A DNA stretch of 64,000 nt from a virus: positions 36,494-100,493 of the IMG/VR virus record IMGVR_UViG_3300009551_000005; one strand, 5' to 3'. The notes under the pieces are model-generated. The model made no database searches. It saw only the letters and a program-made list of their open reading frames with translations, and was not told the DNA's origin. The translations under genes and the position numbers were made by a program. Of the stretch, positions 993 through 62,466 are shown in pieces. How positions within the stretch are numbered: position 1 is the first letter of the stretch; every line of letters starts with the position of its first letter.

Positions 993-1016
993 CCGTCGGT
1001 GATCGATCACAGACGG
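993..1016. repeat. 24-bp palindrome copy 1 (1 mismatch), intergenic between divergent promoters
   Basis: CCGTCGGTGATCGATCACAGACGG. Confidence 0.95.
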
Positions 1017-1048
1017 TGCTAGCCTCCACCGGAGACGGAGGAATCCCC

Positions 1049-1429
1049 ATGGCGAGGCACGTACCCAACAAGAACAGCGAAACCGCGGTCCGCGCGCCCA
1101 TCCAGGGCGGCACGCTCGGTGTCCCCGCGCAGCCCCAGGCCGCGCCGCTTCCAGGCCCGTTCGTTCATCGGCAGCAGGGTCCCAGGCCGCCGGAGAAGAA
1201 GCCGCGGCGCTGGGAGGTGATGGACAACCCGAGGAAGGGCTCCGACGGTGATTGGCGCGTCCTCTTGAACCACGCGGTGGTCATCCTGAAGAGCGGGAGG
1301 ATCGTGACGGCGCTCAACTACAACCTCGATGAGCTCCGCGCACAGGGCGTGAAGCTGAAGCCCCTCGACCCGCCGGACGAGGAGGAGAACAAGCCCGAAG
1401 CGGACGGCGAAGAAGCCGCGGCGGAGTAG
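1049..1429 (+). CDS. Hypothetical virion-module protein
   Basis: GGAGG RBS before ATG 1049 (MARHVPNK); TAGCCT -10 at 1020-1025. Confidence 0.7.
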   Translation: MARHVPNKNSETAVRAPIQGGTLGVPAQPQAAPLPGPFVHRQQGPRPPEKKPRRWEVMDNPRKGSDGDWRVLLNHAVVILKSGRIVTALNYNLDELRAQGVKLKPLDPPDEEENKPEADGEEAAAE

Positions 1430-1433
1430 CTCT

Positions 1434-1646
1434 GTGGGAGTGGAGCTCGTCTACTCTTGCGACGTCTGCAAGGACGTGGCTCACGAGAAGGACTTCTACG
1501 CGGGCAAGCCGCGGTGGACCACGATGAACATCAACTCTCCGAGCATCCCCGGCGTGGGCATTGCGCAGGTGGCTCTCTGTTCGGAGAGGTGCCTGGTGAA
1601 CTGGCACGAGAAGGAAGCTCGTAGGCTGAGAGGCGGTGCGCGGTGA
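1434..1646 (+). CDS. Small Cys-rich (zinc-finger-like) protein
   Basis: CDVC...CSERC; GTGA overlap with the next gene. Confidence 0.55.
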   Translation: MGVELVYSCDVCKDVAHEKDFYAGKPRWTTMNINSPSIPGVGIAQVALCSERCLVNWHEKEARRLRGGAR

Positions 1647-2053
1647 CCCAGATCTCTTCGACCAACCGGGTGAAGGCGCGCCATCACATGGGCTACGGCG
1701 GCGTCACGCAGGCGCAGACGTTCATCTTGGGCGTGCCGGCGGCGACGCAGCAGCAGTTCATGATCGAGAACGCGCTGAACCAGCTTCTCCCCGAGTCGCT
1801 CCCCAAGTTCGAAGAGATCCTCAAGCAACTCGACGGCATCGAGGAGCGTATCTGGAAGGCCATCGGGAACTTCGAGGCGAACAAGGTCGGCAACATCGAG
1901 GTCAACACGAAGGCCGACCAGGACATGATCCGCGGCTACCTCTTCTTCCAGGGCGCGCTCGCGAACATGCTCCTCGTGCCGCCGAATCCGAACGACATGC
2001 GCCCGTGGATCGGCGGAAGCGGTGGGATCAACGCGCCCGTGATGCACGGATAG
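1643..2053 (+). CDS. Putative head-tail adaptor/completion protein
   Basis: 136 aa, helical; position after the capsid gene. Confidence 0.5.
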   Translation: MTQISSTNRVKARHHMGYGGVTQAQTFILGVPAATQQQFMIENALNQLLPESLPKFEEILKQLDGIEERIWKAIGNFEANKVGNIEVNTKADQDMIRGYLFFQGALANMLLVPPNPNDMRPWIGGSGGINAPVMHG

Positions 2054-8964: not shown

Positions 8965-9134
8965 GCGAGGGGTTGTTCCACCGGAGGCGCGCACAGGGCG
9001 TCGTCGGCGGCTCGGGCAACCTCCGACTTCCCCGCCCATCCTCGCCGGGCCTGGATGGGGGAGAGGAGGTCTGGTGAGAGAGCGCCTCCCCAGCCCGGGG
9101 CCGTCGTCGCCCGACTAGAAAGACGAGGAACATC

Positions 9135-10120: not shown

Positions 10121-10212
10121 GCTCCCAGCCCGCCGAAGGGGTGCACCTCTCCGGCGGGCCAGTTCCGGCATCCGCCCCGTGGGCGGTCTGACCGACAGCT
10201 CTCCTGATGCCG

Positions 10213-10236
10213 CCGTCGGTGATCGATCACCGACTG
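10213..10236. repeat. 24-bp palindrome copy 2 (1 mismatch), intergenic
   Basis: CCGTCGGTGATCGATCACCGACTG, ending 3 nt before the TAGCGT -10 of the tape measure gene. Confidence 0.95.
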
Positions 10237-10251
10237 TGGTAGCGTCACCAC

Positions 10252-12391: not shown

Positions 12392-12423
12392 CGCGCTCGC
12401 GCGCCGGCGCGGAGGTGTAACCC

Positions 12424-16137: not shown

Positions 16138-16161
16138 CCGTCGGTGATCGATCACCGACGG
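16138..16161. repeat. 24-bp palindrome copy 3 (perfect), intergenic
   Basis: Ends 3 nt before the TAGCGT -10 of the spike gene. Confidence 0.97.
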
Positions 16162-22953: not shown

Positions 22954-22977
22954 CCGTCGGTGATCGATCACCGACGG
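22954..22977. repeat. 24-bp palindrome copy 4 (perfect, extends to 28 bp), between divergent promoters
   Basis: CGCCGTCGGTGATCGATCACCGACGGCG at 22952-22979. Confidence 0.97.
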
Positions 22978-27146: not shown

Positions 27147-27277
27147 CCGAGCCCGACTCGCTCCAGATGGCGAAGCGGAAGTTCGACCTCGTGACTCGAG
27201 ACATCAAGGAGTCGCAGCGCCTCGCGAAGACGCGTCTGCGCGCCATCCTCGCGTCCACGGGCACGGACCGTCGGTGA
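27143..27277 (+). CDS. 44-aa peptide whose TGA stop lies inside palindrome copy 5
   Basis: GTGA coupling; ends ...GTDRR*. Confidence 0.45.
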   Translation: MTEPDSLQMAKRKFDLVTRDIKESQRLAKTRLRAILASTGTDRR

Positions 27278-27291
27278 TCGATCACCGACGG
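27268..27291. repeat. 24-bp palindrome copy 5 (perfect)
   Basis: Ends 6 nt before the TAGGCT -10 of the holin-like gene. Confidence 0.97.
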
Positions 27292-29406: not shown

Positions 29407-30231
29407 ATGCCGAGAGCGAGAGGTGGGGTTCAGGAGAAGACGGCGGCCGTTGGTGATCGATCACCGACGGTGCCCGCGCCGACGGTTGGACCGGGCGGTG
29501 TTGTCACCGTGAAGTGCCCCGACTGCGGGGTCGACCAGTCCCTCGGAGCGCTGACCAAGGAGGGCGGGTGCCGGATGTGTGAGGCGCCCATGCTCAAGTT
29601 CTTTCCGGCGGAGGCGCGAACGCAGCAGCTTCCCGGAACGGAGACGCCGCCGGCGACGGAATCTCCCAAGACTCCCCCGCTCCCCGGCGCAGAGCCGAGA
29701 CCTGGCGATCCGACGTGCGAGGAGTGCGGCGCGCGTCTCACCATCGCCGGTGACAAGAAGTTCTGTCCCGACATCTCGATCAAGCCCCACAAGTCGAGTC
29801 AGATCGTGGCCGCCGGCGATGCTCCGTTTTCCATCAAGCCGTCACCGGCGACGCAGGCTGCGGTGAAGGAGATCGTGAACGAAACGGTCCTCAAGCGCGA
29901 GAATGCGTGGCGCGAGACGATGCCCGGGGCAGAGAACATGAAGCCTTGGGACCCTCCGACCGTCAGCGTGGATACAGGCGCTAACCCCACAACGGTTCAC
30001 GTGAACGGTGCACCACCGTCGTCCCGTGTCGAGGTCGGTGAGATGGCGTTCGCGCCGCAGCAGTATCACTCGTTCCGCGTGGGTCCGTTCTCCATGACCG
30101 GGCCGGTGGGCACCGAGCGCAAGATGCTTGCGCATCTGCACGAGCTCCAGTCGGAGGAGTTCGATCGGCAGCTCGTCGCTTACCAAGCATTCATGTCGAA
30201 GCTCTACGGCGACAAGGGCAAGCGCGGGTAG
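29407..30231 (+). CDS. Zinc-ribbon hypothetical protein
   Basis: Several CxxC pairs; GGAGG RBS. Confidence 0.65.
   Translation: MPRARGGVQEKTAAVGDRSPTVPAPTVGPGGVVTVKCPDCGVDQSLGALTKEGGCRMCEAPMLKFFPAEARTQQLPGTETPPATESPKTPPLPGAEPRPGDPTCEECGARLTIAGDKKFCPDISIKPHKSSQIVAAGDAPFSIKPSPATQAAVKEIVNETVLKRENAWRETMPGAENMKPWDPPTVSVDTGANPTTVHVNGAPPSSRVEVGEMAFAPQQYHSFRVGPFSMTGPVGTERKMLAHLHELQSEEFDRQLVAYQAFMSKLYGDKGKRG
29447..29470. repeat. 24-bp palindrome copy 6 (1 mismatch, synonymous), in CDS
   Basis: CCGTTGGTGATCGATCACCGACGG, encodes AVGDRSPTV. Confidence 0.95.
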
Positions 30232-33843: not shown

Positions 33844-34826
33844 TCCGCACGACGCGCGCCGCGGAGATCTTCACCGCGCTCGGGCACGCGCCTCTCCCCC
33901 GCGATGTTCGACCACATGCGTTTTGGGTGCTCTGCCCCGTCCATGACGACCACGATCCCTCGTGTCATGTGCGCTCGGACGGTCCGCGCGCCGGCTCTTG
34001 GCGCTGCTATTCCTGCGGCGCGCGCGGCGACACGACGGACCTCGTGCAGATCAAGCTCGGGCTCTCGTTCCGCGAGGCTCGTGATTGGCTCGGCGACGCG
34101 CTTGTCGATGACAAGGCGTGGGAGCCGCTGCCTGCGCGCGTGGTTGTCGTTTACCAGACGTCTCTGTCCAACCTGCGCGTCCCCAAGGGCGTGAACTTCT
34201 CGCCGCTTGAGGAGTGGCCGACACCGGCGCGCCGCTACCTTCTCGAGGAGCGCAAAGTGCCCGAGTGGCAAGCGGAGAGGTGGGGCATTGGGTACGCCGC
34301 GCGTGGCCGTCTCTCGGGCAGAATCGTCCTGATGCTGCGCAACGCGGAGCAAGAGCCGCGCAACTACATGGCGCGTTCTTTTTGCGGTCACGAGGAGCGC
34401 TATCTCACGCCGCGCGGCGACGAGGTGCCTGACTACACGGCGCTCTTCGGAGAGGAGAACTGGAAGACCTCGCGCGCGCTCGACCGCGTCTATGTCACCG
34501 AAGGAGCGCTCAACGCGCTCGCGGTCGAGCGCGCGCTCTCGGTGAACGATTACCAGTGCCCGACGATCGCGGCGGTCGGCGGCGCTTCGGAGCTCAGCAC
34601 GTCCCACACCGCGAAGCTCGCCATGTTCCGCGAGGTGGTCGTGCTCTCTGACTCGGACAAGGCCGGCGACGGGTTGGCGGACAAGATGCGCGCCGCGCTC
34701 AAGCGTCTCTTCATCGCGCGGAACGGGAAGCTTGTGCGCGTGCGTGTGCGCGGCGGCAAGGACATCGACGAGATGGACAAGGACGAGCTCGTGCGTCAGA
34801 TCCGTGACTTGGAGGAGCCACTGTGA
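33840..34826 (+). CDS. dnaG: DnaG-type primase
   Basis: CHC2 finger CPVH...CYSC; TOPRIM VTEG and DSD. Confidence 0.88.
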   Translation: MIRTTRAAEIFTALGHAPLPRDVRPHAFWVLCPVHDDHDPSCHVRSDGPRAGSWRCYSCGARGDTTDLVQIKLGLSFREARDWLGDALVDDKAWEPLPARVVVVYQTSLSNLRVPKGVNFSPLEEWPTPARRYLLEERKVPEWQAERWGIGYAARGRLSGRIVLMLRNAEQEPRNYMARSFCGHEERYLTPRGDEVPDYTALFGEENWKTSRALDRVYVTEGALNALAVERALSVNDYQCPTIAAVGGASELSTSHTAKLAMFREVVVLSDSDKAGDGLADKMRAALKRLFIARNGKLVRVRVRGGKDIDEMDKDELVRQIRDLEEPL

Positions 34827-35074
34827 CCGCGTGGAACAAGGGAACGGGCACAACGCCGTGGGGAGACCTCGCCAAGAAGGATCCCGAGGAGGCCAAGCGC
34901 GAGATGTATCGCGCGCTCTTTCGCGCTGGCGGGAGCCGTCGCAGGGCAGCGGAGTTTCTCGGTGTCTCGGACTCTCTCCTCGAGGCTCGAATGCACCAAC
35001 TGGACAAGAACGCAGCGCGTCGCGTCCGGGCGCTTCTCAAGAAACGGTTCACTCTCCCCGACAGAGCGGCATAG
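34823..35074 (+). CDS. Fis-like HTH protein
   Basis: ALFRAGGSRRRAAEFLGVS. Confidence 0.7.
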   Translation: MTAWNKGTGTTPWGDLAKKDPEEAKREMYRALFRAGGSRRRAAEFLGVSDSLLEARMHQLDKNAARRVRALLKKRFTLPDRAA

Positions 35075-35086: not shown

Positions 35087-35404
35087 ATGCCCGCATTCCA
35101 CGACTTCACCGCGCTCGTCAGGAGCAACCCGGCGGAGGCCAAGGAGAAGCTCATCGCCGATTACAAGGCGGCGCACTGCTGTCTCACCGATGTTGCGCTC
35201 AAGCACGGCGTGCAGCTTCGCACCGTGGGCGCGTGGGTGAAGGAGCTCGGGATCGGCGTGGAGCTCCTTCTCCTCGAGGACCAGGCCAAGAAAGAAGGAT
35301 GGCACCACGGCCGGCGCGGTGGACGTCCCCCCAAGACCGCCAAGCGCGCGAAGCGGTCCACCGTCGGTGATCGATCACCGACGGCGCGCGGGAGTCGCAG
35401 GTGA
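35087..35404 (+). CDS. HTH DNA-binding protein
   Basis: LTDVALKHGVQLRTVGAWVKELG; basic GGRPPK tail. Confidence 0.65.
   Translation: MPAFHDFTALVRSNPAEAKEKLIADYKAAHCCLTDVALKHGVQLRTVGAWVKELGIGVELLLLEDQAKKEGWHHGRRGGRPPKTAKRAKRSTVGDRSPTARGSRR
35361..35384. repeat. 24-bp palindrome copy 7 (perfect), in CDS C-terminus
   Basis: Encodes TVGDRSPTA. Confidence 0.97.
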
Positions 35405-39201: not shown

Positions 39202-40635
39202 ATGGCTGCGACGACGACCGAAGAGACGGCGACCAAGAAGGCGACCAAGAAGAGCACCCAGAAGCCCGGCGAGAGCATCATGGGGCCGCTCGTGTGTGGG
39301 ATTCACCGCGACATGACGGTGCGCGAGGTCCTGGTTGAGAACAGCGGGCTCACCGAGGAGACCGCGGCCAGCTTGCCCACCGAGGCGCTCATCCAGCTCG
39401 TGACGCGGAAGGTGCTTCGCGATTGGCCCAAGGATTCCAAGGACCTGACGCAGTGCGTGCAGTGCAAGTCCATCTCCAACAAGGAGTACGACAACTGCCT
39501 TTTCTGCGGCTCCGAGGACACGGTGAACGAGATCCTCTCGGAGAAAGTCATCGACGACTTCAAGGCCGCGTGTGAGGCTGGGGTCGCGGCTTCCGTCGGT
39601 GATCAACCGACGCCGGCGAGGGAGGCCGCGAAAGGCGAGGACACGATGGGACCGAGCACGCACACGGCTCCGGCCGGGGGCAAGAAGAACGGAACAGCGA
39701 AGGCGGAGGAGTCCACTCCGAACCTTCTCGCAGGAGGATTGCCGCCGGGCGCGAAGCCCGCGGCGACGAGCACCGCGCTCGCGAAGGCGGAGCCCAAGGC
39801 GTTGGCGAAGCCTCAGACGGAGGACGATCTCGACAACGCCATCGCGAAGTTCGAGAAGCTGAAGGCCGGCGCGATGGTCTCCATCTGGGACCTCGGTGAC
39901 TACCTTCGCAACGAGATCTACGAGACGCAGCTCTGGAAGCAGCGGACCGAAGAGGTCGAAGAGAAGGGCGGCACGACCAAGAAGCCGGGCCGCTGGAAGA
40001 CGTGGGAGAGCTTCTGCAACTCGGAGCTCCAGTGCGTGCCGGCGACGGCGATGAACTGGATGCTCATCGCGAAGACGTTCACGCGGGACGACGTCGCGCG
40101 CTGGGGTCCGACCAAGCTCGGGATCCTCGCCACGGCTCCGAAGGAGGAGCTCGACCGCGTGAAGAAGAGCATGGAGGGTGGCGCGTCCGTCCGTCAGCTC
40201 CTCGGAGAGGTGAGCGACGCGAAGAAGAAGCACCCCGGCAAGGGTGGGCGCACGCTCGGTGTTTCGCGCGGCAAGTACGGCGGAGAGGCGAGCGACGCGC
40301 AGAAGGAGGCGCGCAAGGCGAACCTCCAGAAGAACGCCAACGCCGCCAAGAGCCGCGCTCTCAAGGAGGCGGAGAAGACGCCGCGCGAGGCGAAGATCAC
40401 GGTGGCCGCCATGATCGGGAAGCTCGGGCGGATGAAGTTCTACCGGACCGACGCGGTGGCGGCGAAGGCGAAGGACAAGAAGCTCGTCGCCACGAAGATG
40501 GACCACAACCCGGTGGGCATCATCGAGCTCCCCTTCCAGAAGGGGATGCACCTGGTCATCAAGCTTAAGTCCGTCGGTTCCGATGGTGGGTGGTGCGGCG
40601 ACGCTGAGTTCAAGCGCATCGAGGAAGAGGAGTAG
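39202..40635 (+). CDS. Large hypothetical protein with zinc ribbon and Lys/Ala-rich regions
   Basis: CVQC...CLFC; WKTWESFC motif of ParB-associated DNA-binding-type domains. Confidence 0.65.
   Translation: MAATTTEETATKKATKKSTQKPGESIMGPLVCGIHRDMTVREVLVENSGLTEETAASLPTEALIQLVTRKVLRDWPKDSKDLTQCVQCKSISNKEYDNCLFCGSEDTVNEILSEKVIDDFKAACEAGVAASVGDQPTPAREAAKGEDTMGPSTHTAPAGGKKNGTAKAEESTPNLLAGGLPPGAKPAATSTALAKAEPKALAKPQTEDDLDNAIAKFEKLKAGAMVSIWDLGDYLRNEIYETQLWKQRTEEVEEKGGTTKKPGRWKTWESFCNSELQCVPATAMNWMLIAKTFTRDDVARWGPTKLGILATAPKEELDRVKKSMEGGASVRQLLGEVSDAKKKHPGKGGRTLGVSRGKYGGEASDAQKEARKANLQKNANAAKSRALKEAEKTPREAKITVAAMIGKLGRMKFYRTDAVAAKAKDKKLVATKMDHNPVGIIELPFQKGMHLVIKLKSVGSDGGWCGDAEFKRIEEEE
39593..39613. 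repeat. Degenerate palindrome copy 8 (in-frame 3-nt deletion)
   Basis: CCGTCGGTGATCAACCGACGC, encodes SVGDQPTP. Confidence 0.7.
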
Positions 40636-40676: not shown

Positions 40677-43313
40677 ATGCCCGAGTTCGTGAACGGCTTC
40701 GTCCGCGGCGGTTCCATTCACCTCCTCACGCGCACGCCGTCCGGTGTGCAGACCACGACCTACCCAGCCGAATACGTCGCCTTCGTTCGGCACGCAGATC
40801 TCCCCGGAGATCTCGAGCGCCATCTCTCCGCCTCGCAGTTCGTCTCCAGCGCCCGGCGCGAGGGCGCGTTCCTTCGCCTCGGCTTCCGCTCCCACGCTTT
40901 CCGCGACGCGCTCTGTCAGTCTCCCAAGTCACCGCTCGCGCAGCACGGCATCGCCACCTACGAGGGCGACGTCGACCCGGTGCGCCGCTGGCTGACGGAC
41001 CATCCAGAGGCGACCATCCAGAGGCCGCGCCGTTGTTGGCTCGACATCGAGACGGACTCCCGCGTGCCTGCGAAGCGCGCGAAGGAGGGAGCCGCGCGCG
41101 TCCTGTCCTGGTCCGTCATCGCGGACGACCCGCGGCGCGTCCGCTTCGACGTCCTCAAGGCAGACACCGACACCGCGGAGGCGGAGCTCCTCGGCCGTTT
41201 CTGGGAGGCGGTCGCTGACCTCGACCAGGTGCTCGCGTGGTTCGGTGACATCTTCGACTTCCCCGTCCTCAAGCTTCGCTCCAAGGCGCGGCGCGTCCGC
41301 TTTGACGAGGACCGTCTGCTTTTTCTCGATCACGCAGAGCTCTTCGAGCGGCACAACAAGAACAGCTCGCAGTCCGGCGAAGAGAAGCAGTCGATGGCGC
41401 TTCAGAACATCGCTGTGGCTTCCGGCGTCGCCGGCAAGCTCGATGAGGAGGGGCTCATCCCCGGCAAGGCTATGGGCGCGCAGACCTGGGAGATGTGGGA
41501 GGCGGGTGGCGAGTGGAGAGACCGCCTCGTGCGATACATGGTTCGCGACACGGAGACCATGCGTCGCATCGAGGGGAAGAACGGATACGTGGCGCTTCAG
41601 TCCACGATCTGCGAGGCGTGCACGCTCTTCGGTGACTCGAGGTCGCTCAAGCCGACGCGCCAGCTCGACGCGTTCATGCTCCGCTTGGGCGCAGCGCGCG
41701 GGCAGCGCTTCCCCACGCGGCGGTTCTTCGACGAGGACGTTGCCGACCAGCACGACCAGTTCAAGGGCGCCTACGTCATGGATCCCAAGGTGCGGGGCAT
41801 CGGCAAGGACATCCACGTCGTCGACTTCTCGCGCATGTATCCGGCGAACATCCTCACGTTCAACATGAGCGCCGAAACGAAGAAGCTCGTTCCGGTGACC
41901 GGTCCGATCCCTGAAGGGTGCTGCCGCACGCCCACGACGGGCGTCGGGTTCACGACCGCTGAGCCGGGGCTTCTCGTCGTCGCGTTGAAGGAGCTCCTCC
42001 GCCTCCGCAAGGAGTGGTCCAAGAAGCAGGCATCGTTGCCGCCGGGCACGACGGATTGGGAGGACGCTGGCCGCCGGTCGGTCGCTTACAAGGTCGCGGC
42101 CAACTCGTTCTACGGCGTCGTCGGCTCGCCGTTCTCGCGCTTCTTTGACCGCGCCATCGCGGAGTCGGTCACGCAGACGGGCGTGTGGCTCCTCAAGATG
42201 ACCATTCACGCCGCGGAGGAGCGCGGGTGGAAGGTGGTCTACGCGGATACCGACTCGTGCTTCGTGCAGGGTCCCACCGATGAGGAGTTCACGGCGTTCG
42301 CCAAGCATTGCAACGAGGTGCTCTATCCCGAGGCGCTCAAGAAGTGCGGCTGCGTCGAGAACGCGGTCGAGATCGCGTACGAGAAGAAGTTGAGCCGCGT
42401 CGTGTTCGTCTCCGCGAAGCGCTACATCGCGAGCTACGCGCACTACAAGGGCAAGGCCGCCACCTCCGACTCCAAGCCCGAGATCAAGGGCATCGAGTAC
42501 AAGAGAGGCGACGCCAACAAGCTCGCGCGTCGCCTCCAGGCGCAGGTCATCGATCTCCTCGTCGGCGGTCTGAAGGTGGTGGAGGGAGCGCCGTCTGATG
42601 ATCTCTCGCGCTACCACGAGCTCGTTTCCAAGATGCGCTCCCACGTGCTCGACGATGCGCTGCCGCTCGACGAGGTGCAGATCGCGCAGAAGATGACGAA
42701 GGATGCCGGCGACTACAAGAACGCTCCGCCACACGTGCGCGTCGCCAAGATGCTCGCGGAGCGTGGCGAGGACGTTCAGGAAGGCGCGCGCATCGCGTAC
42801 GTGGTGACCGACGGCTCTGTCTCGCCGATGACCGTCATCCCCGCCATCGACTACACCGGGCAGGAGGCGGACCGGCACTACATCTGGGAGGACAAGGTGT
42901 TTCCGCCGACGCGCGCGCTCCTCGAGGCCGCGTTTCCTGATGAGCCGTGGGAGCCGTGGGCCAAGACGCGTCCACCCAAGGTGCGCTCCAAGAAGAGCGC
43001 CGAAGGACAACTCGAGCTCGGGCAGCAACCGACGCTTTCTCCGCTGCCCAAGCCCTCGGAGAGTGCCGTCGGTGATCGATCACCGACGGTGAAGAAGCCG
43101 AAAGAGTTCGTGGCCGTGCTCGACCAGTCCAGGCTCCCCGGGCGCGATCTCACCGTGGTGCGCGACATCGTGGCGCGTCACCCAGGTGACCGACCGCTCG
43201 TTCTGGACCTTGGGCTCGAGGGAGGACGGCGCGCGAAGATGAGCACCATCTTCACGTGCGACGGGAGCGAGGCGCTGGCGGAGGAGCTCAAGAGGTTCCG
43301 CGCGGCATCGTGA
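40677..43313 (+). CDS. polB: Family B DNA polymerase
   Basis: Exo I DIET, Exo II FDF, DFSRMYP, KVAANSFYG, YADTDS, KRY. Confidence 0.95.
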   Translation: MPEFVNGFVRGGSIHLLTRTPSGVQTTTYPAEYVAFVRHADLPGDLERHLSASQFVSSARREGAFLRLGFRSHAFRDALCQSPKSPLAQHGIATYEGDVDPVRRWLTDHPEATIQRPRRCWLDIETDSRVPAKRAKEGAARVLSWSVIADDPRRVRFDVLKADTDTAEAELLGRFWEAVADLDQVLAWFGDIFDFPVLKLRSKARRVRFDEDRLLFLDHAELFERHNKNSSQSGEEKQSMALQNIAVASGVAGKLDEEGLIPGKAMGAQTWEMWEAGGEWRDRLVRYMVRDTETMRRIEGKNGYVALQSTICEACTLFGDSRSLKPTRQLDAFMLRLGAARGQRFPTRRFFDEDVADQHDQFKGAYVMDPKVRGIGKDIHVVDFSRMYPANILTFNMSAETKKLVPVTGPIPEGCCRTPTTGVGFTTAEPGLLVVALKELLRLRKEWSKKQASLPPGTTDWEDAGRRSVAYKVAANSFYGVVGSPFSRFFDRAIAESVTQTGVWLLKMTIHAAEERGWKVVYADTDSCFVQGPTDEEFTAFAKHCNEVLYPEALKKCGCVENAVEIAYEKKLSRVVFVSAKRYIASYAHYKGKAATSDSKPEIKGIEYKRGDANKLARRLQAQVIDLLVGGLKVVEGAPSDDLSRYHELVSKMRSHVLDDALPLDEVQIAQKMTKDAGDYKNAPPHVRVAKMLAERGEDVQEGARIAYVVTDGSVSPMTVIPAIDYTGQEADRHYIWEDKVFPPTRALLEAAFPDEPWEPWAKTRPPKVRSKKSAEGQLELGQQPTLSPLPKPSESAVGDRSPTVKKPKEFVAVLDQSRLPGRDLTVVRDIVARHPGDRPLVLDLGLEGGRRAKMSTIFTCDGSEALAEELKRFRAAS
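43066..43089. repeat. 24-bp palindrome copy 9 (perfect), in the PolB C-terminal linker
   Basis: Encodes AVGDRSPTV. Confidence 0.97.
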
Positions 43314-44263: not shown

Positions 44264-45742
44264 ATGCCCACTGAGTTCAATTCCGTCGACGAGTTCCTCA
44301 AGTACCAGGTCGGCAATCGCGCCGGTCGCCTGAAGGGTTGGAGGAAGAACATCGACGAAAACCACGGCGCCGTGAAGGTCGTGTTCCACACGAAGCAGCT
44401 CCCAGTCATCCTCTGGCAGCACGCGAACATCCCGCAGATCGTCAACCGCCTGAAGGACGAGGAGGAGGTCGAGGAGCTCTGGAGCGGGAAGTGGAATTGC
44501 TGGGAGGATGAGGGCTACCTGAAGGGGCAGCGCGACTTCGACGAGAACAACAAGGTGAAGGACGTCTGGCCCACGCACTGCGGTCAGTGCCGCCTTCAGA
44601 CGTGGCTCTACCTCGAGGTGCTGAAGGGTCACATCCCGTTCTATCAGCCACTCTTCCGTTTCAGCGCCGCGGATGCGGAGCGCGACACCGTGCTCTTCGC
44701 CGGCGGGATCACCGGCCTGCACCCCGAGTTCAAGGATCTCGACAACGACACGAAGTCTCTCGTGAAGGAGTCGGGAATGGAGCTCGGCACCGCGTGGAAG
44801 CAGGAGAACTGGGCGAAGGCGGTCTGCCTCTTCACCGTCGCGCAGCTCGATGACCCGGGTCTCGGCATCATGATCTCGGAGGAGACGCAGCTCCTCTTCC
44901 AGAAGTTCCAGACGGAGCTCAGGAAGACCATCCAGAGGAAGCAGGTGGACGCGCAGGCGCGCGAGAAGGGTCTCGGCAATCCGTTTAGGAACCCCTATCC
45001 GTTCCGGTGGGATTACGACGGGAAGCCCAAGAGCAAGAAGATCTCGGACATGTACGACTGCACCGCGCTCGAAGAGCCCGTGCCCGAGGACGTTCTCAAG
45101 CTCGTGATGGGCACGCCGCCGGACATCACGAAGCAGAAGCTCCGCCACAACCAGCAGGAGATGCGCGCTTATCTCGAGGAGCACCAGATCAAGGGCGTGA
45201 AGATTCCCTGGGACGAGATCTACGACGTGCCCAAGCTCGTGGATGACAAGGACGACGCCGCGTTTCCTCACGGCGCTAACGCGCCGGCGGAGGAGAAGGG
45301 CAGGACGCCGGAGGTCAGCACCGTCGGTGATCGATCACCGACGGCTCCCGATCCCAAGGCCGCGGCGCTGGCAGAAGCGAAGGCCGCGCGTAGCATCCCG
45401 ACGGCCGAGGACGACGCCAACTTCCCGGGCGCGGTCGCCGAGTGCTGGGACGACAAGAGCGGGTGCAAGACGTGGATGTGGTCCGACGCTCATACGTGTC
45501 CGAACCCGAAGTGCGGACGCATCTGGGACCCCGAGAAGGCTGCCGCCGCGAAGGCTGCGGAGGAGGCGAAGAAGGCGGCCGAGCAGCCCGCCCAGGAGGC
45601 TCCCCGTCCGCGCGGCAGGGGACGCGGCGCCAAGGCCGCGGAGACCGCAGCTCCAGCTCAGGAAGCGCCGCCGGCGGCCGCCCAGACGACCTCCATCCCC
45701 GCGCGCGGGAAAGAGGTCGGCGGAGACAAGGTCGGTTTCTGA
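44264..45742 (+). CDS. Putative ssDNA-binding protein (gp32-like) with low-complexity tail
   Basis: H...C...CxxC zinc ligands; position beside RecA; function inferred. Confidence 0.45.
   Translation: MPTEFNSVDEFLKYQVGNRAGRLKGWRKNIDENHGAVKVVFHTKQLPVILWQHANIPQIVNRLKDEEEVEELWSGKWNCWEDEGYLKGQRDFDENNKVKDVWPTHCGQCRLQTWLYLEVLKGHIPFYQPLFRFSAADAERDTVLFAGGITGLHPEFKDLDNDTKSLVKESGMELGTAWKQENWAKAVCLFTVAQLDDPGLGIMISEETQLLFQKFQTELRKTIQRKQVDAQAREKGLGNPFRNPYPFRWDYDGKPKSKKISDMYDCTALEEPVPEDVLKLVMGTPPDITKQKLRHNQQEMRAYLEEHQIKGVKIPWDEIYDVPKLVDDKDDAAFPHGANAPAEEKGRTPEVSTVGDRSPTAPDPKAAALAEAKAARSIPTAEDDANFPGAVAECWDDKSGCKTWMWSDAHTCPNPKCGRIWDPEKAAAAKAAEEAKKAAEQPAQEAPRPRGRGRGAKAAETAAPAQEAPPAAAQTTSIPARGKEVGGDKVGF
45321..45344. 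repeat. 24-bp palindrome copy 10 (perfect), in CDS linker
   Basis: Encodes TVGDRSPTA. Confidence 0.97.
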
Positions 45743-49237: not shown

Positions 49238-49687
49238 ATGAGCCGCCGGGGTGCGAAGATCGCCGTCGGTGATCGATCACCGAAGGTGCGGAGAGTCGCG
49301 GTGGAGAAGGATCGCGACCTCGTGACGATCGGTCCCAAGTCGCTCGTGTGGGGAGGGACGCTGCAAGATCTCGTGTTGGCGGCGGGCTTCACGAGTCCTG
49401 AGCGGTTCTGCGAAGGGAAGTTCTTCCGCCTTCGTCCTCCGCGCGGGAACGCGGAGAATGCGCGCGCCACGGCGGCGACGCTCAAGCACTTCGGAGCGCT
49501 GGGCGTGCAGGTGGAGTTGCCCGAGGAGGAGCACGCGGCGATCGGACACGAAGAGGAGCAGGGCTCACTCATCCTCTCGATGTCGCTCCGCGATGCGGTG
49601 ATGCAGACGGCGGAAGCGGCAAACACCGCGGACCGTCCCAAGATGAAGGCCGCGCTCGAGCGTTCGCTCGCGGCCGCGAAGATCTGA
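49238..49687 (+). CDS. Hypothetical protein, possibly a detached SbcD C-terminal domain
   Basis: Between sbcD and sbcC; sbcD ends right after its nuclease domain. Confidence 0.5.
   Translation: MSRRGAKIAVGDRSPKVRRVAVEKDRDLVTIGPKSLVWGGTLQDLVLAAGFTSPERFCEGKFFRLRPPRGNAENARATAATLKHFGALGVQVELPEEEHAAIGHEEEQGSLILSMSLRDAVMQTAEAANTADRPKMKAALERSLAAAKI
49263..49286. repeat. 24-bp palindrome copy 11 (1 mismatch), CDS N-terminus
   Basis: CCGTCGGTGATCGATCACCGAAGG, encodes AVGDRSPK. Confidence 0.95.
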
Positions 49688-52728: not shown

Positions 52729-53307
52729 ATGCCTCGCGCCGTCGGTGATCGATCACCGAAGGGCCCGCACGTCATCGGGCTCGACCTCTCCAAGAACGCG
52801 CCGGCGGCGGTGGCAGTGCCCGCGACGTTCGCCGCCGGCGACGGCGCACTGGCTTGGGGCACGGTGAGGAAGTGGAAACTCGAGGCTCAGGACGACACGC
52901 TCGTGTGGCGCGAGAGGAACGTGCGCGAGGGGCTTCGGTCCTTCCTCGTCTCGCTCGAGCGCGAGGGCTGCAAGATCCAGGGTGTCTACGCAGAGGACTA
53001 CGCGCACACGCAGATGGCTCGGCGCGGCGGGTGGATGCTCTGCGAGGTCGGCGGCGTCGTGCGCGTGATGCTCGCGGAGGTGTTCGGGCAGACCATGCGG
53101 ATGGTGGTCGCCGCCAGCGCTCGCAAGCTCCTTCTCGGCAAGGTCCCGCGGGAGAAGACGTCGGGCATGCCGGTGAAGGAGTACGTCTTTCGCCGGCTCC
53201 GTCAGATGCGGTCGGGGTTCACGGACTTCGATCACGCTGACGCGTTCGTGGTGGCCAACTACGGACTCCACGATCTCGGACTCCCCTGTCTCGCGTCTGA
53301 GGAGTAG
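52729..53307 (+). CDS. RuvC-like Holliday junction resolvase
   Basis: IGLDLS, YAED, DHADAF RNase H-fold acidic residues. Confidence 0.75.
   Translation: MPRAVGDRSPKGPHVIGLDLSKNAPAAVAVPATFAAGDGALAWGTVRKWKLEAQDDTLVWRERNVREGLRSFLVSLEREGCKIQGVYAEDYAHTQMARRGGWMLCEVGGVVRVMLAEVFGQTMRMVVAASARKLLLGKVPREKTSGMPVKEYVFRRLRQMRSGFTDFDHADAFVVANYGLHDLGLPCLASEE
52739..52762. repeat. 24-bp palindrome copy 12 (1 mismatch), CDS N-terminus
   Basis: Encodes AVGDRSPK. Confidence 0.95.
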
Positions 53308-53317
53308 ATTCCTCCAC

Positions 53318-54947: not shown

Positions 54948-54963
54948 CGTCATCAGGGGAGCC

Positions 54964-57603: not shown

Positions 57604-58264
57604 CGTGGCGAAGCAGGAGAGCGGCGGGATCGAATGCTCGCGGTGCGGCGAGAGGACCGACGTGGTGAACGAGCTCGGGTTCTGCCAGCGGTGCATGCAA
57701 ACGCTCGCTGGCGCGCCGGTGGTGGGCGCTGAAGTCACGGAGAATGCTTCGACGTTCGAGTGGGCGACCGCTCAGGTGGGCAAGCACCTTTTCCACCGAG
57801 GGCACGGCTTCGTCGGCGAGGTAGTCGGTGCCATTCGCGCCGGTGAGCACAAGGGGCCCAACGGTCGCCCGGTGACTGCACCGGTCCTTCTTTTCAAGGG
57901 CGGTCACACGATGGTCGCCAACGCGCGCGCGGTCCAAGAGCTCACCGTCGAGGGCGTGACGCTCGTCAACAAGACCGCGGAGTGGATCGGCCTCGTTTTG
58001 AACCGTTCCATGCGGCTCGGCGGAGCGCTGGGCATCGAGCCCGAAGACGCCATCAAGCTCCTCACCGCCGTCATCGCGTCCCAAGCGCGTCACCTTCAGG
58101 CGACGGAGCTCCCCGCGCGCGAGCCTCCCGTCGATCCGCTCATCCCGGATGTCCCCGGTGTCGTTCCCACCGCTCCCGTCGGTGATCGATCACCGACGGC
58201 GTATCGCTTCAGCGAAGAGGAAGCCGGGCCGAGCTCAGACAGAAAGCGTGAGGAGACGACGTGA
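57593..58264 (+). CDS. Hypothetical protein with N-terminal zinc finger
   Basis: CSRC...CQRC; GGAGG RBS. Confidence 0.65.
   Translation: MTTDVAKQESGGIECSRCGERTDVVNELGFCQRCMQTLAGAPVVGAEVTENASTFEWATAQVGKHLFHRGHGFVGEVVGAIRAGEHKGPNGRPVTAPVLLFKGGHTMVANARAVQELTVEGVTLVNKTAEWIGLVLNRSMRLGGALGIEPEDAIKLLTAVIASQARHLQATELPAREPPVDPLIPDVPGVVPTAPVGDRSPTAYRFSEEEAGPSSDRKREETT
58176..58199. repeat. 24-bp palindrome copy 13 (perfect), CDS C-terminal tail
   Basis: Encodes PVGDRSPTA. Confidence 0.97.
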
Positions 58265-58884
58265 ACCCCTATCACTCGCACCAGGCGCTCGCGTCCGTCG
58301 TCGAGATGTACAAGGGCATCCTCGAAGACCAGGACCGTATCCAGAAGCTTCAGATGGGTGAAGCGGAGCGGCTGAGGAAGTCTCTCGATGTCGCGGAGAA
58401 GATGCGCCGCGAGCAGGTCACCAAGGCGTTCGAGGCGCAGGCGGAGGTCCAGAGCCTCCGTGAGCTCATCGCGATGGTGGTCAACGGGGTCGCGCAGACC
58501 AAGGCGGGCATCGGCAAGGGCAAGCCTTGGACGCTCGACGAGATCCTCGAGACGCTCAGACCTGCGCTGGTACCTTCGCCTGATGCCGTTCGTCAGCAAG
58601 AAGCAACGCCGATGGATGCACGCGACCGACCCGGAGATGGCGGATCGGTGGGAGAAGCACACGCCGAAGGGCAAAGAACTGCCGGAGGAAGCGAAGAAGC
58701 GGGAGCCGTCCAAGCTGGAGAAGTGGGCGCGCCGCAACAACCGACGTTCGTAGTCGCGCCCGGGCGCGAGGTGCCTGCGAGGTTCCGCACCAACGTGCCG
58801 ATCATCGGCAAGACGGACCTCACGCGGCCGCCGGCGGGAACCACGACCGTCGAGCGTCTCACGGGCTTCAACAGGCAAGGATGA
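58261..58884 (+). CDS. Coiled-coil hypothetical protein
   Basis: GAGGAG RBS; coupled at both ends. Confidence 0.6.
   Translation: MNPYHSHQALASVVEMYKGILEDQDRIQKLQMGEAERLRKSLDVAEKMRREQVTKAFEAQAEVQSLRELIAMVVNGVAQTKAGIGKGKPWTLDEILETLRPALVPSPDAVRQQEATPMDARDRPGDGGSVGEAHAEGQRTAGGSEEAGAVQAGEVGAPQQPTFVVAPGREVPARFRTNVPIIGKTDLTRPPAGTTTVERLTGFNRQG
58583..58753 (+). CDS. Nested 56-aa basic peptide (MPFVSKKQRRWMHATDPEMADRWEKHTPKG...)
   Basis: TGGTACCTT-N6-ATG leaderless promoter; +1 frame inside 58261-58884. Confidence 0.65.
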   Translation: MPFVSKKQRRWMHATDPEMADRWEKHTPKGKELPEEAKKREPSKLEKWARRNNRRS

Positions 58885-59255
58885 AGCGCTCCGGCAAGAA
58901 GCGCGGCCACCTCCAGCTCGTGGAGACGGCCAAGCGGTCCTTCAAGCCGAGTCAGTTCTCGCCTGGCATGGTGATGGACATCATGGTGGGCATGGACGGT
59001 CCGCGCGCGGCTGCGTGGATCGTCCGCGCGCACCGTCGGAGCTTCCACCGCTCGGGACTCGTCAGCCTCAGCATCCCTCTCGAGGACTCGAAGAAGCTGC
59101 CGCCGTGGTTCCGTATCGGCATCGAGTGCCTGAAGCGGAGGAAGCCCACCGGCACGCCGAAGACGGCGAAGTGGCGCGTTGTTGAGCGGCAGGACGCGGA
59201 GCGGAAGACCTACGTGCTGTTTTGGCTCGGGTGGGGAGCTGTCGCGAATGGCTGA
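58881..59255 (+). CDS. Hypothetical protein
   Basis: ATGA coupling. Confidence 0.55.
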   Translation: MKRSGKKRGHLQLVETAKRSFKPSQFSPGMVMDIMVGMDGPRAAAWIVRAHRRSFHRSGLVSLSIPLEDSKKLPPWFRIGIECLKRRKPTGTPKTAKWRVVERQDAERKTYVLFWLGWGAVANG

Positions 59256-59505
59256 CGAGCTGAAGGTCATCCCGATGCCTCATCGCTATGCGCCTCCGTG
59301 GGCGCTCTGGGTGGTGGGTGTCTATTCGGACCGCGACGAAGATGGGGAGCTTTACTGGAGCGCGGAGTGCCGGCGGTGCGGTGCGCACTATCCGCCTCAG
59401 ATGAAGGGCGCGCCGGCGGCGCTCAAGTGCACCTCCGGCATGGTGCGCCGGAGGATCGGCTTGTTCGCGTCGGACCATGTGAAGTGCGAGGAGAAGAAGA
59501 CATGA
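59248..59505 (+). CDS. Small zinc-binding hypothetical protein
   Basis: GGAG RBS; CRRC...C...H..C. Confidence 0.55.
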   Translation: MADELKVIPMPHRYAPPWALWVVGVYSDRDEDGELYWSAECRRCGAHYPPQMKGAPAALKCTSGMVRRRIGLFASDHVKCEEKKT

Positions 59506-60353
59506 CCGGAATGGTGAATCAGTGGGGAATGCAGGGGACTGAGAAGAAGCTCCTCGACCACGGCTACGTGCGGGTCATCGAGCTCTGGGGAAGCGATCAG
59601 CGCGTCGTTGAGAGCGCGCGCATGTCCACCGGCAAGGACTTCAAGGGGTGGGGCCCGCACGAGGGCGTCTGCAAGCGTTGCGGCGCGAAGGAGTCCGAGG
59701 CGAAGGAGAAGGCCGTCCAAGTCGGCAAGGCGCGCTCCTTCTGCGAGGAGGATGTGGCGGGCAACCATGATTGGGAGCGGAAGCCCGGCGATGAGAAGCT
59801 CCTCGGGTACCTCTGGAAGAATCAGCACACGACGCCGTTCGAGATGGCGGGTCTCACCGTGGAGGTCCAGGCGCCGATCTTCGTCTTCCGCGAGTGGCAC
59901 CGGCACCGCACGCAGAGCTACAGCGAGGCGTCCGCGCGCTACGAGCCGTTGCCCGACCTGAACTACGTGCCCTCGATTGAGCGCTGCCTGATGGGCGGAG
60001 GTCATCTCACGAAGCAGGCGGGCAGCGTTGCCGGCGCGGAGGAGCTCAACGCAGCCGGCGCGGAGCTCTTCCGCCATCTCCTCATCGAGGAGTACGAGCG
60101 GTGCCAGCAGACCTACGAGCGCGCGCTGAAGGGAGGCATCCCCAAGGAGCTCGCGCGTCTCGTCTTGCCCGTCGGTCGTTACTCCAAGATGCGCGCGAGC
60201 ACGGATCTTCTGAACTGGCTGAAGTTCCTCAAGCTGCGCATGGACGCGACCGCGCAGTGGGAGATCCGCCAGTACGCCGAAGCCGTCGGCGAGATTGTCG
60301 CGTTCAACTTCCCGCGCGTGTGGGAGTTCTTCCTCGAGTCGAGGGCAAAGTGA
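59502..60353 (+). CDS. thyX: Flavin-dependent thymidylate synthase
   Basis: HTTPFE, REWHRHRTQSYSEASARY (RHRx7S), KELARLVLP, AQWEIR. Confidence 0.95.
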   Translation: MTGMVNQWGMQGTEKKLLDHGYVRVIELWGSDQRVVESARMSTGKDFKGWGPHEGVCKRCGAKESEAKEKAVQVGKARSFCEEDVAGNHDWERKPGDEKLLGYLWKNQHTTPFEMAGLTVEVQAPIFVFREWHRHRTQSYSEASARYEPLPDLNYVPSIERCLMGGGHLTKQAGSVAGAEELNAAGAELFRHLLIEEYERCQQTYERALKGGIPKELARLVLPVGRYSKMRASTDLLNWLKFLKLRMDATAQWEIRQYAEAVGEIVAFNFPRVWEFFLESRAK

Positions 60354-60727
60354 GCGAGCTTCCCGGGAGGCGGAACGACAAGGGAAAGTGGCGCTTCTCG
60401 CTCTTTCCGTTCGACGCGCTCCGCGCGGTGGCGAACGTCCTCGAGCACGGCGCTCGCAAGTATGCGGAGTGGAACTGGCTCGACATCCCAGATTCCAGGG
60501 AGCGCTGTCTCAACTCCCTCATGCGCCACACGTTCGCGTGGTGGCAGGGCGAGACCTGGGACTTCGGCACGCCGGAGGAGCCCGGAACGGGAGAGCGTCA
60601 CCTCGCGTGCATGGCCTGCAACGTCATCTTCCTGCTGACGCTCGAGATCCGCGGGAAGATCGACTCTGAGCCCAGGGTGCAACCGGACTGGTGGCGCGCC
60701 GTCGGTGATCGATCACCGACGGCGTAG
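60350..60727 (+). CDS. DUF5664-type dATP/dGTP diphosphohydrolase domain protein
   Basis: NDKGKWRFSLFP..L..VANVLEHGARKYAEWNW, LMRH, HLACMACN. Confidence 0.8.
   Translation: MSELPGRRNDKGKWRFSLFPFDALRAVANVLEHGARKYAEWNWLDIPDSRERCLNSLMRHTFAWWQGETWDFGTPEEPGTGERHLACMACNVIFLLTLEIRGKIDSEPRVQPDWWRAVGDRSPTA
60699..60722. repeat. 24-bp palindrome copy 14 (perfect), last codons of CDS, adjacent to a GCGGCATC motif
   Basis: Encodes AVGDRSPTA*; GCGGCATC at 60727-60734. Confidence 0.97.
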
Positions 60728-60755
60728 CGGCATCTTCCGCGCCAGGAGGTCCGGC

Positions 60756-61088
60756 ATGGCCAAGAGGTGCGGTGTCTGCGCGAAAGCGTACAGGACGGGG
60801 CAGATCGGGTTCGTCCGCGAGAAGGGGCGCCTGCGCGGCTGTAAGGTCTGCCCTGCGTGCGTCACGAAGTACGGCGTGCTCCTCATCATGGCCACGCCGG
60901 CTGTCGAGCTCGCGCCCAAGCGCCAGAAGCTCTCTCACTCCAAGCTGAAGACGCATCTGAAGGCGATGGCGAAGGTCCTCGCCGCGGGCAACGTCGACGG
61001 AGACCTTCACGTGAAGAGCAAGATCGAAGGCCTCGAATCCGCCATCGAGGCCATCGACTCGGGACGCTTTCACGAGGGTGATTCGTGA
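60756..61088 (+). CDS. Zinc-finger hypothetical protein
   Basis: AGGAGG RBS; CGVC...CPAC. Confidence 0.6.
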   Translation: MAKRCGVCAKAYRTGQIGFVREKGRLRGCKVCPACVTKYGVLLIMATPAVELAPKRQKLSHSKLKTHLKAMAKVLAAGNVDGDLHVKSKIEGLESAIEAIDSGRFHEGDS

Positions 61089-61681
61089 GCACGCGATCGG
61101 ACTTCCTCTTGCTTGTTCATCACATTGGAGCGTCCGCGGCGACGTTGGCCGTCGCGATGAAGGTGCCCGAGGAGTTTCTTCCCGTCGACGAGAACATCGA
61201 GGAGAGGTTCTCCGAGCACTCCGTTGGCCATCCGCTCGCGCCCGGGCTCACCGGCGACCAGCACCCGTGCTTCAAGCTCCTCACCGAGGCGGCGAAGTTC
61301 GTCATGTGGATGGAGCGGCCCACCGAGTACATGAAGACGTACTCCGAGGGTCCAAGCTTCATGATGGAGTGGTACGAGAGCGTGCTCACGAGGCGCTCGC
61401 GCACTGTGAAGGTCTCCTGCTCGGGCGTGAACGAAGGCGACGACTGGCAGGCGTTCTGGGAAGCGCTCCTCGAGCACGTGGAGGCGATGGAGGAGGACCA
61501 CGACCCGCTCGAGTCCCTCGACCGACGCATCTACGAGAACCTGCTCGTGCAGGGTGAGCCCGGCGTGGAGCTCTTCATCACGCCGGCGGAAGCCCAAGCC
61601 TTCCGCGAATGGCTTGAGGCGCTGCCGTGCTACGTCCACGCGAGACCGCCGTTCATCTTCCAGGAAGGGGTGTCCGAGTGA
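61085..61681 (+). CDS. Acidic hypothetical protein
   Basis: GTGA coupling at both ends. Confidence 0.6.
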   Translation: MSTRSDFLLLVHHIGASAATLAVAMKVPEEFLPVDENIEERFSEHSVGHPLAPGLTGDQHPCFKLLTEAAKFVMWMERPTEYMKTYSEGPSFMMEWYESVLTRRSRTVKVSCSGVNEGDDWQAFWEALLEHVEAMEEDHDPLESLDRRIYENLLVQGEPGVELFITPAEAQAFREWLEALPCYVHARPPFIFQEGVSE

Positions 61682-62466
61682 GTGACCGAGAGGAAGAGAA
61701 GACCATCAACTCGAAGATCCTCGGCGAGGCGCGCGAGGGTGAAGTCACCGTCGGTGATCGATCACCGACGGCGCTGAAGCCGACGCTCGTCTGGCATTGC
61801 ACGCAGATCTCCTGCGGTCAGCACGAGGAGGCTGGCGAGGGTGACGGGCTCGGCGACGAGCGCCCCTGCCACTTCTGCGCTGGGCGGTTGGAGGGCACCG
61901 CGCGCGTCAGAGCGCACATCCCCACGCGCGCAGCGCTCTACGTCGTCGAGTGTGTCGTCCCCAAGCCGGGGGAAGGCGACAACGTGGAGTTCAGCGTCTA
62001 CCCGCCGCCCAACGACTTCACGCCCAAGGAGACCATCGAAGCGATCCAGGAGCTCGTGCGCACGTCCGCGGAGCGTCTCGCCGAGAAGGTGAAGACGATG
62101 GATCGCACGCCGCTTATCGCGGACCTCCACGCCGTGAAGAAGCCGCGGGACCTCGCGAACCTGAAGCCGCGGAAGTGCATGGCGACGGGCTGCAAGAACG
62201 ATTGTACGCACGTCGTGACCCTTCTCCTGCGCACGCGCGAGCAGCTCTACAAGGGAAAGCCCATGCGCATGCGCGTGGGTCTCGTCGTCTGCTCGCGTCC
62301 CGAGCACCGGCCCAAGAACGCCGATCCGTTCTTCGCCAACAAGGGAGACTGGGAGCGACTCCTCGAGCACTTCGACCGGAGGAAGTGGCCGCGACCCCAC
62401 CGTATCCTCACCGACGTGGACTACGTGCCCATCGACAAGGATCCCGATCTCGAGGGCTACGAGTGA
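61678..62466 (+). CDS. Cys-rich hypothetical protein
   Basis: GTGA coupling; two Cys/His clusters. Confidence 0.6.
   Translation: MSDREEEKTINSKILGEAREGEVTVGDRSPTALKPTLVWHCTQISCGQHEEAGEGDGLGDERPCHFCAGRLEGTARVRAHIPTRAALYVVECVVPKPGEGDNVEFSVYPPPNDFTPKETIEAIQELVRTSAERLAEKVKTMDRTPLIADLHAVKKPRDLANLKPRKCMATGCKNDCTHVVTLLLRTREQLYKGKPMRMRVGLVVCSRPEHRPKNADPFFANKGDWERLLEHFDRRKWPRPHRILTDVDYVPIDKDPDLEGYE
61748..61771. repeat. 24-bp palindrome copy 15 (perfect), CDS N-terminal region
   Basis: Encodes TVGDRSPTA. Confidence 0.97.

Follow-up and report, generated by a model that had tools for sequence, protein, structure and literature searches.

Several replicons carry one short DNA word at many places for a common reader. 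On the IncP plasmid RK2, one palindromic operator, OB, is repeated across the replicon and serves a single global regulator. The promoters of T7-group phages are highly conserved, phage-specific words that stand at syntenic unit starts and co-evolve with their reader. In phage T4, the MotA box is an activator site centered near -30 that replaces the -35 element. Here, we describe a 24-bp palindrome, CCGTCGGTGATCGATCACCGACGG, dispersed over the genome of an uncultured soil phage (IMG/VR record IMGVR_UViG_3300009551_000005; 100,493 bp, terminal repeats, rated complete). The window is the whole stretch that was analysed, 64,000 nucleotides (nt) covering bases 36494-100493 of that record, and positions are given in its coordinates unless the genome or a locus is named.

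The closest published analogue is found in Cluster O mycobacteriophages, where a 17-bp dyad repeat (TGTTCGG-NNN-CCGAACA) occurs in 34 invariant copies and has no assigned function (Cresawn et al. 2015, PMC4351075). As here, invariant dyad copies are spread across the genome, with many intergenic, about one third coding and some near gene starts; they are independent of transcription direction, and the phages have leaderless promoters (PMC4351075). The two elements differ in build, since the Cluster O repeat has 7-bp arms around a 3-bp non-symmetric spacer, whereas the one described here has a different sequence, spans 24 bp and is symmetric through its center with no spacer. Moreover, about half of the copies here abut promoter boxes at a fixed distance, and the word differs from phage to phage, whereas five Cluster O phages share one word. 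The Cluster A stoperators are about 30 near-identical dispersed sites with a motif that varies together with the repressor among related phages, and their binding silences transcription genome-wide (PMC6550527, PMC9283540). Divergence of the motif between related phages at syntenic sites is found here too. However, a monomer reads the stoperators, which are asymmetric sites of 13-14 bp that follow the direction of transcription and belong to temperate phages with an immunity repressor, whereas we find a perfect palindrome and no integrase in five complete genomes. KorB, a ParB-family CTPase clamp that works with KorA, acts at promoters or at some distance from them (PMC11790492). The ParB-parS and KorB-OB sites are palindromes of about 13-16 bp, dispersed or clustered; the site here is likewise palindromic (24 bp, 19 copies), but a cognate ParB-family protein was not found in several palindrome-bearing genomes.

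Dispersed invariant palindromes have thus been noted before in a few cultured phages of Cluster O without explanation. What is new here is a lineage-wide, positionally conserved and concertedly evolving element of an uncultured soil phage family that is tied to promoter boxes. To the earlier description we add the fixed link to two types of promoter box, statistics of synteny and spacing, a single-step concerted change and an explanation of the reading-frame bias. We propose, at a probability of roughly one half, that a DNA-binding protein encoded by the phage, a dimer with two-fold symmetry, docks on the palindrome in double-stranded DNA, that this site is private to the genome, and that it marks the boundaries of transcription units and gene cassettes.

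Copies of the palindrome in the phage genome

Searching the window with up to three mismatches allowed, we found 14 sites, nine of them perfect and five with one mismatch. Dinucleotide-preserving shuffles of the window contained no site in 100 of 100 trials, and the chance expectation is 0. A further copy at 39593 is a decayed relic with five differences or an indel. The original prediction, made from the letters of the window alone, had listed exactly these 14 starts in the same two classes and had called the copy at 39593 degenerate. Counting over the full contig adds five perfect copies, so that the whole genome holds 19 good copies and the relic. The genome has a G+C content of about 66%, and its genes lie nearly all on the plus strand.

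The flanks of the copies are unrelated to one another, promoter-like boxes excepted. Aligning them, we saw no target-site duplication, as had been noted before, and in no case do terminal repeats enclose a cargo; the repeated unit is the palindrome by itself.

The exact 24-mer occurs in no other IMG/VR contig, in none of 241 million metagenome records and in none of 185,579 prokaryote genomes (one per species); its 16-bp core gives single chance matches only in the collections searched. Therefore, the element is not a host repetitive extragenic palindromic (REP) sequence or miniature transposable element with inverted repeats (MITE), one of two trivial origins that the original prediction had kept in view. 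The other, an assembly artefact, fails on three grounds. In the source run, one contig spans the examined 20-kb stretch without differences; a second rhizosphere study yields short pieces identical to the phage, at low coverage, and neither run shows polymorphism at palindrome sites; and independent metagenomes hold relatives with analogous palindromes.

Nearly every related phage carries its own palindrome

Homologues of the phage DNA polymerase number in the hundreds, at about 45-50% identity, on metagenome contigs of 90-105 kb. The comparison drew on 26 loci from viruses, 49 from metagenomes and 18 related contigs taken whole. In 17 of these 18, one palindrome of the contig's own is dominant, 16-30 bp long and present in 6-26 copies, and it differs from that of the phage studied here. 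Examples are CCCAAACCCGGGTTTGGG (26 copies), YTGGAACTCGAGTTCCAR (24), GATTCGAAAAGCGCTTTTCGAATC (16-17) and CCACCGCACGGCGCCGTGCGGTGG (26). Every lineage variant is symmetric through its center, with C|G as the central step in nearly all. In three genomes all the copies are perfect (26/26, 24/24 and 18/18).

The sites partly keep their places while the word changes. Two genomes that are 97% identical have the same palindrome sites. Comparing two collinear lineages of about 70% DNA identity, we find palindromes at orthologous places in three of four cases. These lineages carry ACGGATGATCGATCATCCGT and ATGGATGATCGATCATCCAT, respectively, which differ by one symmetric pair (ACGG...CCGT versus ATGG...CCAT) in every copy (three and five distinct copies). 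Whole copy sets have here changed in concert on both arms at resident sites, and not by repeated insertion.

The remaining contig, G011 (L136-L140), has no dispersed palindrome. At about 26-38 kb it instead carries a sigma-70-like promoter cassette (TTGACC, about 17 nt, CATAAA) some 14 times over, and a T-run terminator comes after every repeat. In the phage of locus L018, which has the longest palindrome seen (arms up to 20 bp), a gene at about 9060-9200 contains a long tandem CCCAAGGCC repeat encoding a PKAPKA-type low-complexity protein.

Palindromes lie at shared gene junctions and are evenly spaced

Pooling 11 genomes, we find 119 of 200 palindrome centers in non-coding DNA, where 17 are expected, an enrichment of about seven-fold. 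The statistic for shared orthologous junctions reaches 221; gene boundaries picked at random give 137 ± 17 and never exceed 192 in 1000 trials. Three junctions lead, each used in 8 of the 11 genomes: before the gene that follows the polymerase, before the helicase that opens the replication module, and before a 606-aa protein. In 8/11 genomes a palindrome lies close to or at the polymerase gene's 3' end, or shortly upstream of the gene that follows. Many copies in the relatives start 0-5 nt past a stop codon and 10-45 nt ahead of the next start. The copies are also spaced more evenly than random ones (coefficient of variation about 0.5, with p < 0.02 for 14 of the 18 genomes).

The gene behind the polymerase junction (43566-44180) encodes a conserved protein of 204 aa that appears UvsY-like by language-model features (score 0.92; 15% of its cluster with PF11056). 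This fits the neighboring RecA-like, Mre11-like and Rad50-like genes. Having considered this protein as a reader of the palindrome, we set it aside because it looks UvsY-like.

Non-coding copies abut promoter-like boxes

The copies in the window and a pair of helix-turn-helix (HTH) genes discussed below are as follows.

993..1016, palindrome copy, one mismatch: non-coding; minus-strand GCGGCAT abuts the left end and TAGCCT lies 3 nt past the right end (back-to-back boxes)
10213..10236, palindrome copy, one mismatch: left end abutted by minus-strand GCGGCAT; on the right TAGCGT at +3 nt, followed after 7 nt by the ATG of gene 10252-12189, a leaderless layout
16138..16161, palindrome copy, perfect: TAGCGT at +3 nt, then 7 nt, then ATG of gene 16178-17140
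22954..22977, palindrome copy, perfect: divergent genes on either side; on the right TAGCCT at +6 nt, 7 nt, ATG of 22997-24904
22954..22977, same copy, left side: minus-strand GCGGCATC, 8 nt, ATG of the minus-strand gene starting at 22938
27268..27291, palindrome copy, perfect: TAGGCT at +6 nt; the leadered gene 27335-27664 is next
29447..29470, palindrome copy, one mismatch: head of gene 29407/29470-30231; an in-frame GTG directly 3', so that the copy may be untranslated
34823..35074, plus strand: A-type Fis/NtrC-type HTH protein, 83 aa, first of a tandem pair; candidate reader
35087..35404, plus strand: 105-aa B-type paralogue whose tail, EGWHHGRRGGRP, is basic; candidate reader or partner
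35361..35384, palindrome copy, perfect: in frame VGDRSPT at aa 92-100 of the 105-aa B-type Fis-like HTH protein, within its C-terminal tail
39593..39616, palindrome relic: within protein 39202-40635, read VGDQPTP; five differences or an indel
43066..43089, palindrome copy, perfect: aa 797-805 of the family B DNA polymerase, in the variable linker that joins the core to a small C-terminal domain
45321..45344, palindrome copy, perfect: low-complexity linker (aa 353-361) of protein 44264-45742; a relative has other residues at equal length
49263..49286, palindrome copy, one mismatch: N-terminal tail (aa 9-17) of protein 49238-49687
52739..52762, palindrome copy, one mismatch: codons 4-12 of protein 52729-53307 (RuvC-like by eye)
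58176..58199, palindrome copy, perfect: C-terminal part of protein 57593-58264
60699..60722, palindrome copy, perfect: gene junction (60320-60727 and the next gene), with TAGCGGCAT 2 nt after
61748..61771, palindrome copy, perfect: near the N-terminus of protein 61678-62466

Nine non-coding copies of this phage stand directly upstream of -10-like boxes, either TAGSST at +3 or +6 or an abutting GCGGCAT. The first box is rare: the whole plus strand has only 22 TAG[CG][CG]T, 7 of them exactly 3 or 6 nt past a palindrome. An ATG follows 7 nt past the TAGSST box in four cases (three in the window). Written out, this leaderless arrangement is palindrome-TGCTAGCCT-7 nt-ATG. The second box, GCGGCAT, is found at five copy ends. 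Two of these are right ends, with the box adjoining or a short way past the palindrome; as a minus-strand box, it abuts the left end of three copies (993, 10213 and 22954), each of which has TAGSST on its right, giving the layout of back-to-back promoters.

Given the fixed gap of 3 or 6 nt to the -10-like boxes, we infer that the palindrome would span about -17 to -43, with its center at about -28.5 to -31.5, in promoters that have a short leader or none, and that some copies would cover two divergent promoters at once. This center resembles that of the MotA box, but MotA boxes and T7 promoters are asymmetric and are read by a monomeric activator and RNA polymerase, respectively. In the relatives, TAGGCT/TAGCCT or GGCGGCATAAG boxes come after the palindrome at a variable distance.

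Over the genome, there are 23 copies of GCGGCAT on the plus strand and 10 on the minus strand (for example at 22938-22953), and an ATG often comes 8-9 nt later, again a leaderless layout. A related box, GGCGGCATAAG, recurs in relatives G001 and G005, and thus the GCGGCAT/GGCGGCATAAG type may be a promoter class of the phage family's own. Throughout the phage, CTAG is strongly avoided, with 18 occurrences where about 312 are expected, and so too are TTAA, TATA and AATT. Some of the rare CTAG, several in number, fall in GCTAGC boxes after palindromes.

The phage encodes a sigma factor at 38495-39157 (Sigma70_r2, E 4e-8; PHROG sigma factor), which clusters in 16 of 19 genomes. We rejected the idea that a palindrome half-site serves as the -35 element of a phage sigma factor, for the gap takes two values here (3 and 6 nt) and ranges over 3-29 nt in relatives; one relative, moreover, has separate -35-like boxes.

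In-frame copies occupy protein tails and linkers

Reading frames contain nine good copies and the relic, ten in all, always in the frame x-VGDRSPT-x. The peptide is written with the codons CGA and TCA, which make up 4.9% of Arg and 3.1% of Ser codons, respectively, and the probability that one VGDRSPT takes exactly these seven codons is 7e-6. This bears out the original claim that conservation acts at the level of DNA and that both codons are rare.

Orthologs lose their homology before the palindrome-encoded peptide or regain it after it, and therefore the peptide sits in N- or C-terminal tails or in linkers. In the polymerase, it occupies a hypervariable linker that is gapped in 13/13 aligned homologues. 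A clean insertion of VGDRSPT, about which the original prediction had asked, could not be demonstrated by aligning homologous proteins; in 44264-45742 the peptide swaps in for a variable linker of equal length. The relatives show frame bias as well (TDDRSS 6/6, GTRVP 8/11, PNPGL 6/7). The favored frame is polar and flexible each time, which explains the bias by tolerance. Own palindromes of relatives are found at the head of the 49238-49687 ortholog (G002 and G005) and 12 nt upstream of the start of the 52729-53307 ortholog (G001). The copies inside genes show a route by which regulatory DNA can become linker peptides in reading frames.

In the polymerase region 42960-43313, a small C-terminal domain lies past the palindrome linker; it is missing in several relatives whose polymerase ends near the palindrome position. 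In this phage, an in-frame GTG directly follows the polymerase palindrome. Outside the window, a gene of the dCMP/cytidine deaminase family (L085:7319-7921) starts right after a palindrome, and the gene before it takes its stop from a TGA within the palindrome.

Candidate readers of the palindrome

Building an iterated profile, we found one small-HTH family in 19/19 genomes, with a tandem pair downstream of the primase in about 11. For the A-type protein, the Pfam HTH_8 model stays below its cut-off with the single sequence 34823-35074, whereas the family profile matches the DNA-binding domains of Fis, NtrC and ZraR (E 7e-6 to 2e-4), in keeping with a helix-turn-helix of the Fis/NtrC type. The A-type structure model (pLDDT 85.7) has Fis and sigma-54 activator DNA-binding domains as its top folds, with weak E-values. 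The recognition helix of A-type proteins is hypervariable; the two lineages that differ by one base pair have SRWQLYRIV and TRRHMYRIV, for example. The HTH pair has a palindrome within 50 nt in 7 of the 18 genomes. These features make the tandem Fis-type pair (34823-35404) a tentative candidate for the reader.

The original prediction had suggested a parS-like site for a ParB protein, a suggestion that is not supported. The ParB-like protein at 53318-54070 matches ParB_N with E 0.0044 and 17.5 bits (Pfam cut-off 26.3). It clusters in 14/19 genomes, and no homologue was found in relatives G003, G004 and G009, which carry 24, 19-20 and 22-23 palindromes and are complete in two cases (100%) and 91% complete in one.

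For most of the conserved small proteins, Pfam and PHROGs gave no matches. A 172-aa protein with a DnaA C-terminal-like HTH (E 6e-8) is encoded outside the window, on the minus strand at genome positions 35157-35675 (L086:15157-15675). Its gene is divergent from the one running into the window start, and it does not cluster in at least 10 of the 19 genomes.

A proposed site on duplex DNA for a dimeric protein

Four observations carry the proposal that a dimer reads the palindrome on duplex DNA: the variants are symmetric through the center, the copy sets change symmetrically and in concert, the positions are syntenic, and a strand bias of the kind expected for RNA is absent. Of the earlier view of a dispersed site for a dimeric or tetrameric protein, the dimeric form is the best-supported reading, whereas the parS or matS flavor that it had been given is not supported.

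A bound dimer would repress the abutting promoters or, acting as an activator centered near -30, would replace the missing -35 contact. The copies inside genes would be the same sites absorbed into protein tails and linkers, tolerated because one frame gives a polar, flexible peptide. As the specificity of the reader drifts, the sites would follow by selection, gene conversion or both.

Several points weigh against this proposal. The distance from palindrome to -10 box ranges from 3 to 29 nt in relatives, and half of this phage's copies lie inside genes with no promoter motif after them. The invariance of 18-26 sites exceeds that usual for the sites of a regulator. Dyad symmetry is extended by at least 3 bp, with a different sequence for each copy, in 19 of 155 copies, where about 2% are expected; this hints at selection for pairing or at a process that makes palindromes. 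Screening 40 conserved families for covariation of the whole protein with half-site similarity, we found none significant, and no reader was picked out. Finally, phages that share GGGTTT half-sites have dissimilar recognition helices, and the palindrome-less G011 retains one HTH copy; these two facts leave the HTH pair a candidate only.

A stronger form of the proposal, which we hold to be a long shot, makes the palindrome a private address word at unit boundaries, read by the fast-evolving Fis-type HTH pair. One protein would then be a genome-wide switch that gates -35-less late promoters and blocks or insulates early units, and word and reader would diverge in concert, so that co-infecting relatives could not cross-regulate. 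If so, these phages together would form a natural library in which orthogonal regulator-operator pairs differ by specificity steps as small as a single base pair (ACGG... versus ATGG...). More generally, finding the reader would reveal a new global control layer of lytic development, let protein-DNA co-evolution be traced in single steps and yield orthogonal operator-regulator pairs.

Alternative explanations

The alternative that survives best, although we consider it unlikely, is a structural hairpin or cruciform. The palindrome would act by folding, either as RNA (a terminator at unit ends, a 3' stabilizer or a processing site) or as DNA (a cruciform in recombination or replication), and gene conversion would keep the copies identical. 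Folded as RNA, it indeed gives a stem of 10-12 bp at -18 to -26 kcal/mol (z about -3 to -4). The many copies of relatives that begin just past a stop codon suit such a role, as do the over-represented, copy-specific extensions of the stem with their differing sequences and the presence of a few copies between convergent genes. No T-run follows the palindrome, unlike in an intrinsic terminator, and of the four copies in 9000-28900 none was called a terminator. No Rfam family matches either. Family-wide, mismatched arm pairs are G-T on the sense strand in 25 and A-C in 31 cases, showing no RNA-type bias, although the common one-mismatch form of G019 is G-T on the sense strand in 11/15. A hairpin loop, moreover, needs no self-complementarity, yet every lineage variant is symmetric through the loop positions, which argues for a two-fold reader on duplex DNA. 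Structure alone also leaves unexplained the identity within a genome and the concerted symmetric substitutions, and ten copies lie inside genes, that of the DNA polymerase included.

G019 (L151-L155) carries its repeat mostly in the one-mismatch form GACCAAAAGGCGCTTTTTGGTC, and it is the only genome with such a G-T bias among its mismatched pairs.

A mark at the level of the chromosome is, in our estimate, rather improbable. On this view, a DNA clamp, or machinery that condenses, packages or modifies DNA, would load or anchor at the evenly spaced copies, as at parS, KorB OB or matS; for instance, a ParB-like protein could license hypermodification of self-DNA. The markedly even spacing speaks for it, but operon-sized units would also give even spacing. 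Being private to the phage, the sites can tell self from host DNA, and the ParB_N-like protein is encoded at the head of a putative modification operon; KorB, furthermore, sets the precedent of a ParB-family clamp that uses dispersed palindromic operators (PMC11790492). Against this stand the sub-threshold ParB_N match and the three palindrome-bearing relatives in which no homologue was found, and similarity among the ParB-like sequences does not follow palindrome similarity (partial rho -0.10). Many copies stand at the fixed distance of 3 or 6 nt from -10 boxes, which points to promoters; they are not neutral labels of the chromosome.

A selfish or recombination-driven repeat of little function, spread or homogenized by copying (in the manner of REP/RAYT elements, MITEs or PeSL-like cassette ends) and tolerated where it landed, would account for the near-perfect identity within a genome beside one decayed relic, for the placement of in-gene copies in tolerant tails and linkers and for source-run unitigs that join the flanks of different copies, but it is very unlikely, since the copies lack the terminal inverted repeats and target-site duplications of MITEs and transposons, five complete genomes lack a Y1/RAYT transposase and a tyrosine or serine recombinase, the host genomes searched lack the 24-mer, positions are kept between phages with wholly different palindromes and between 97%-identical genomes, and the distances to promoter boxes are fixed.

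The unitigs concerned have the full depth of the phage and link 43091 to 60697 and 51133 to 61747; either an effect of the assembly graph or real recombination between copies could have produced them.

Lifestyle and host

Searches of the five complete genomes for tyrosine and serine recombinases and for Y1/RAYT transposases (PF01797) found none, while the positive controls and control genomes were detected. The lack of a transposase had been part of the original prediction. We conclude that the element is not REP-like and that, as judged from gene content, the phage family is probably virulent.

By megablast, the phage has no near relatives among cultured phages, and its polymerase gives only distant tblastn matches. 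A haloarchaeal host, considered because of the leaderless genes, the high G+C content and the family B polymerase, was rejected because the proteome is not acidic.

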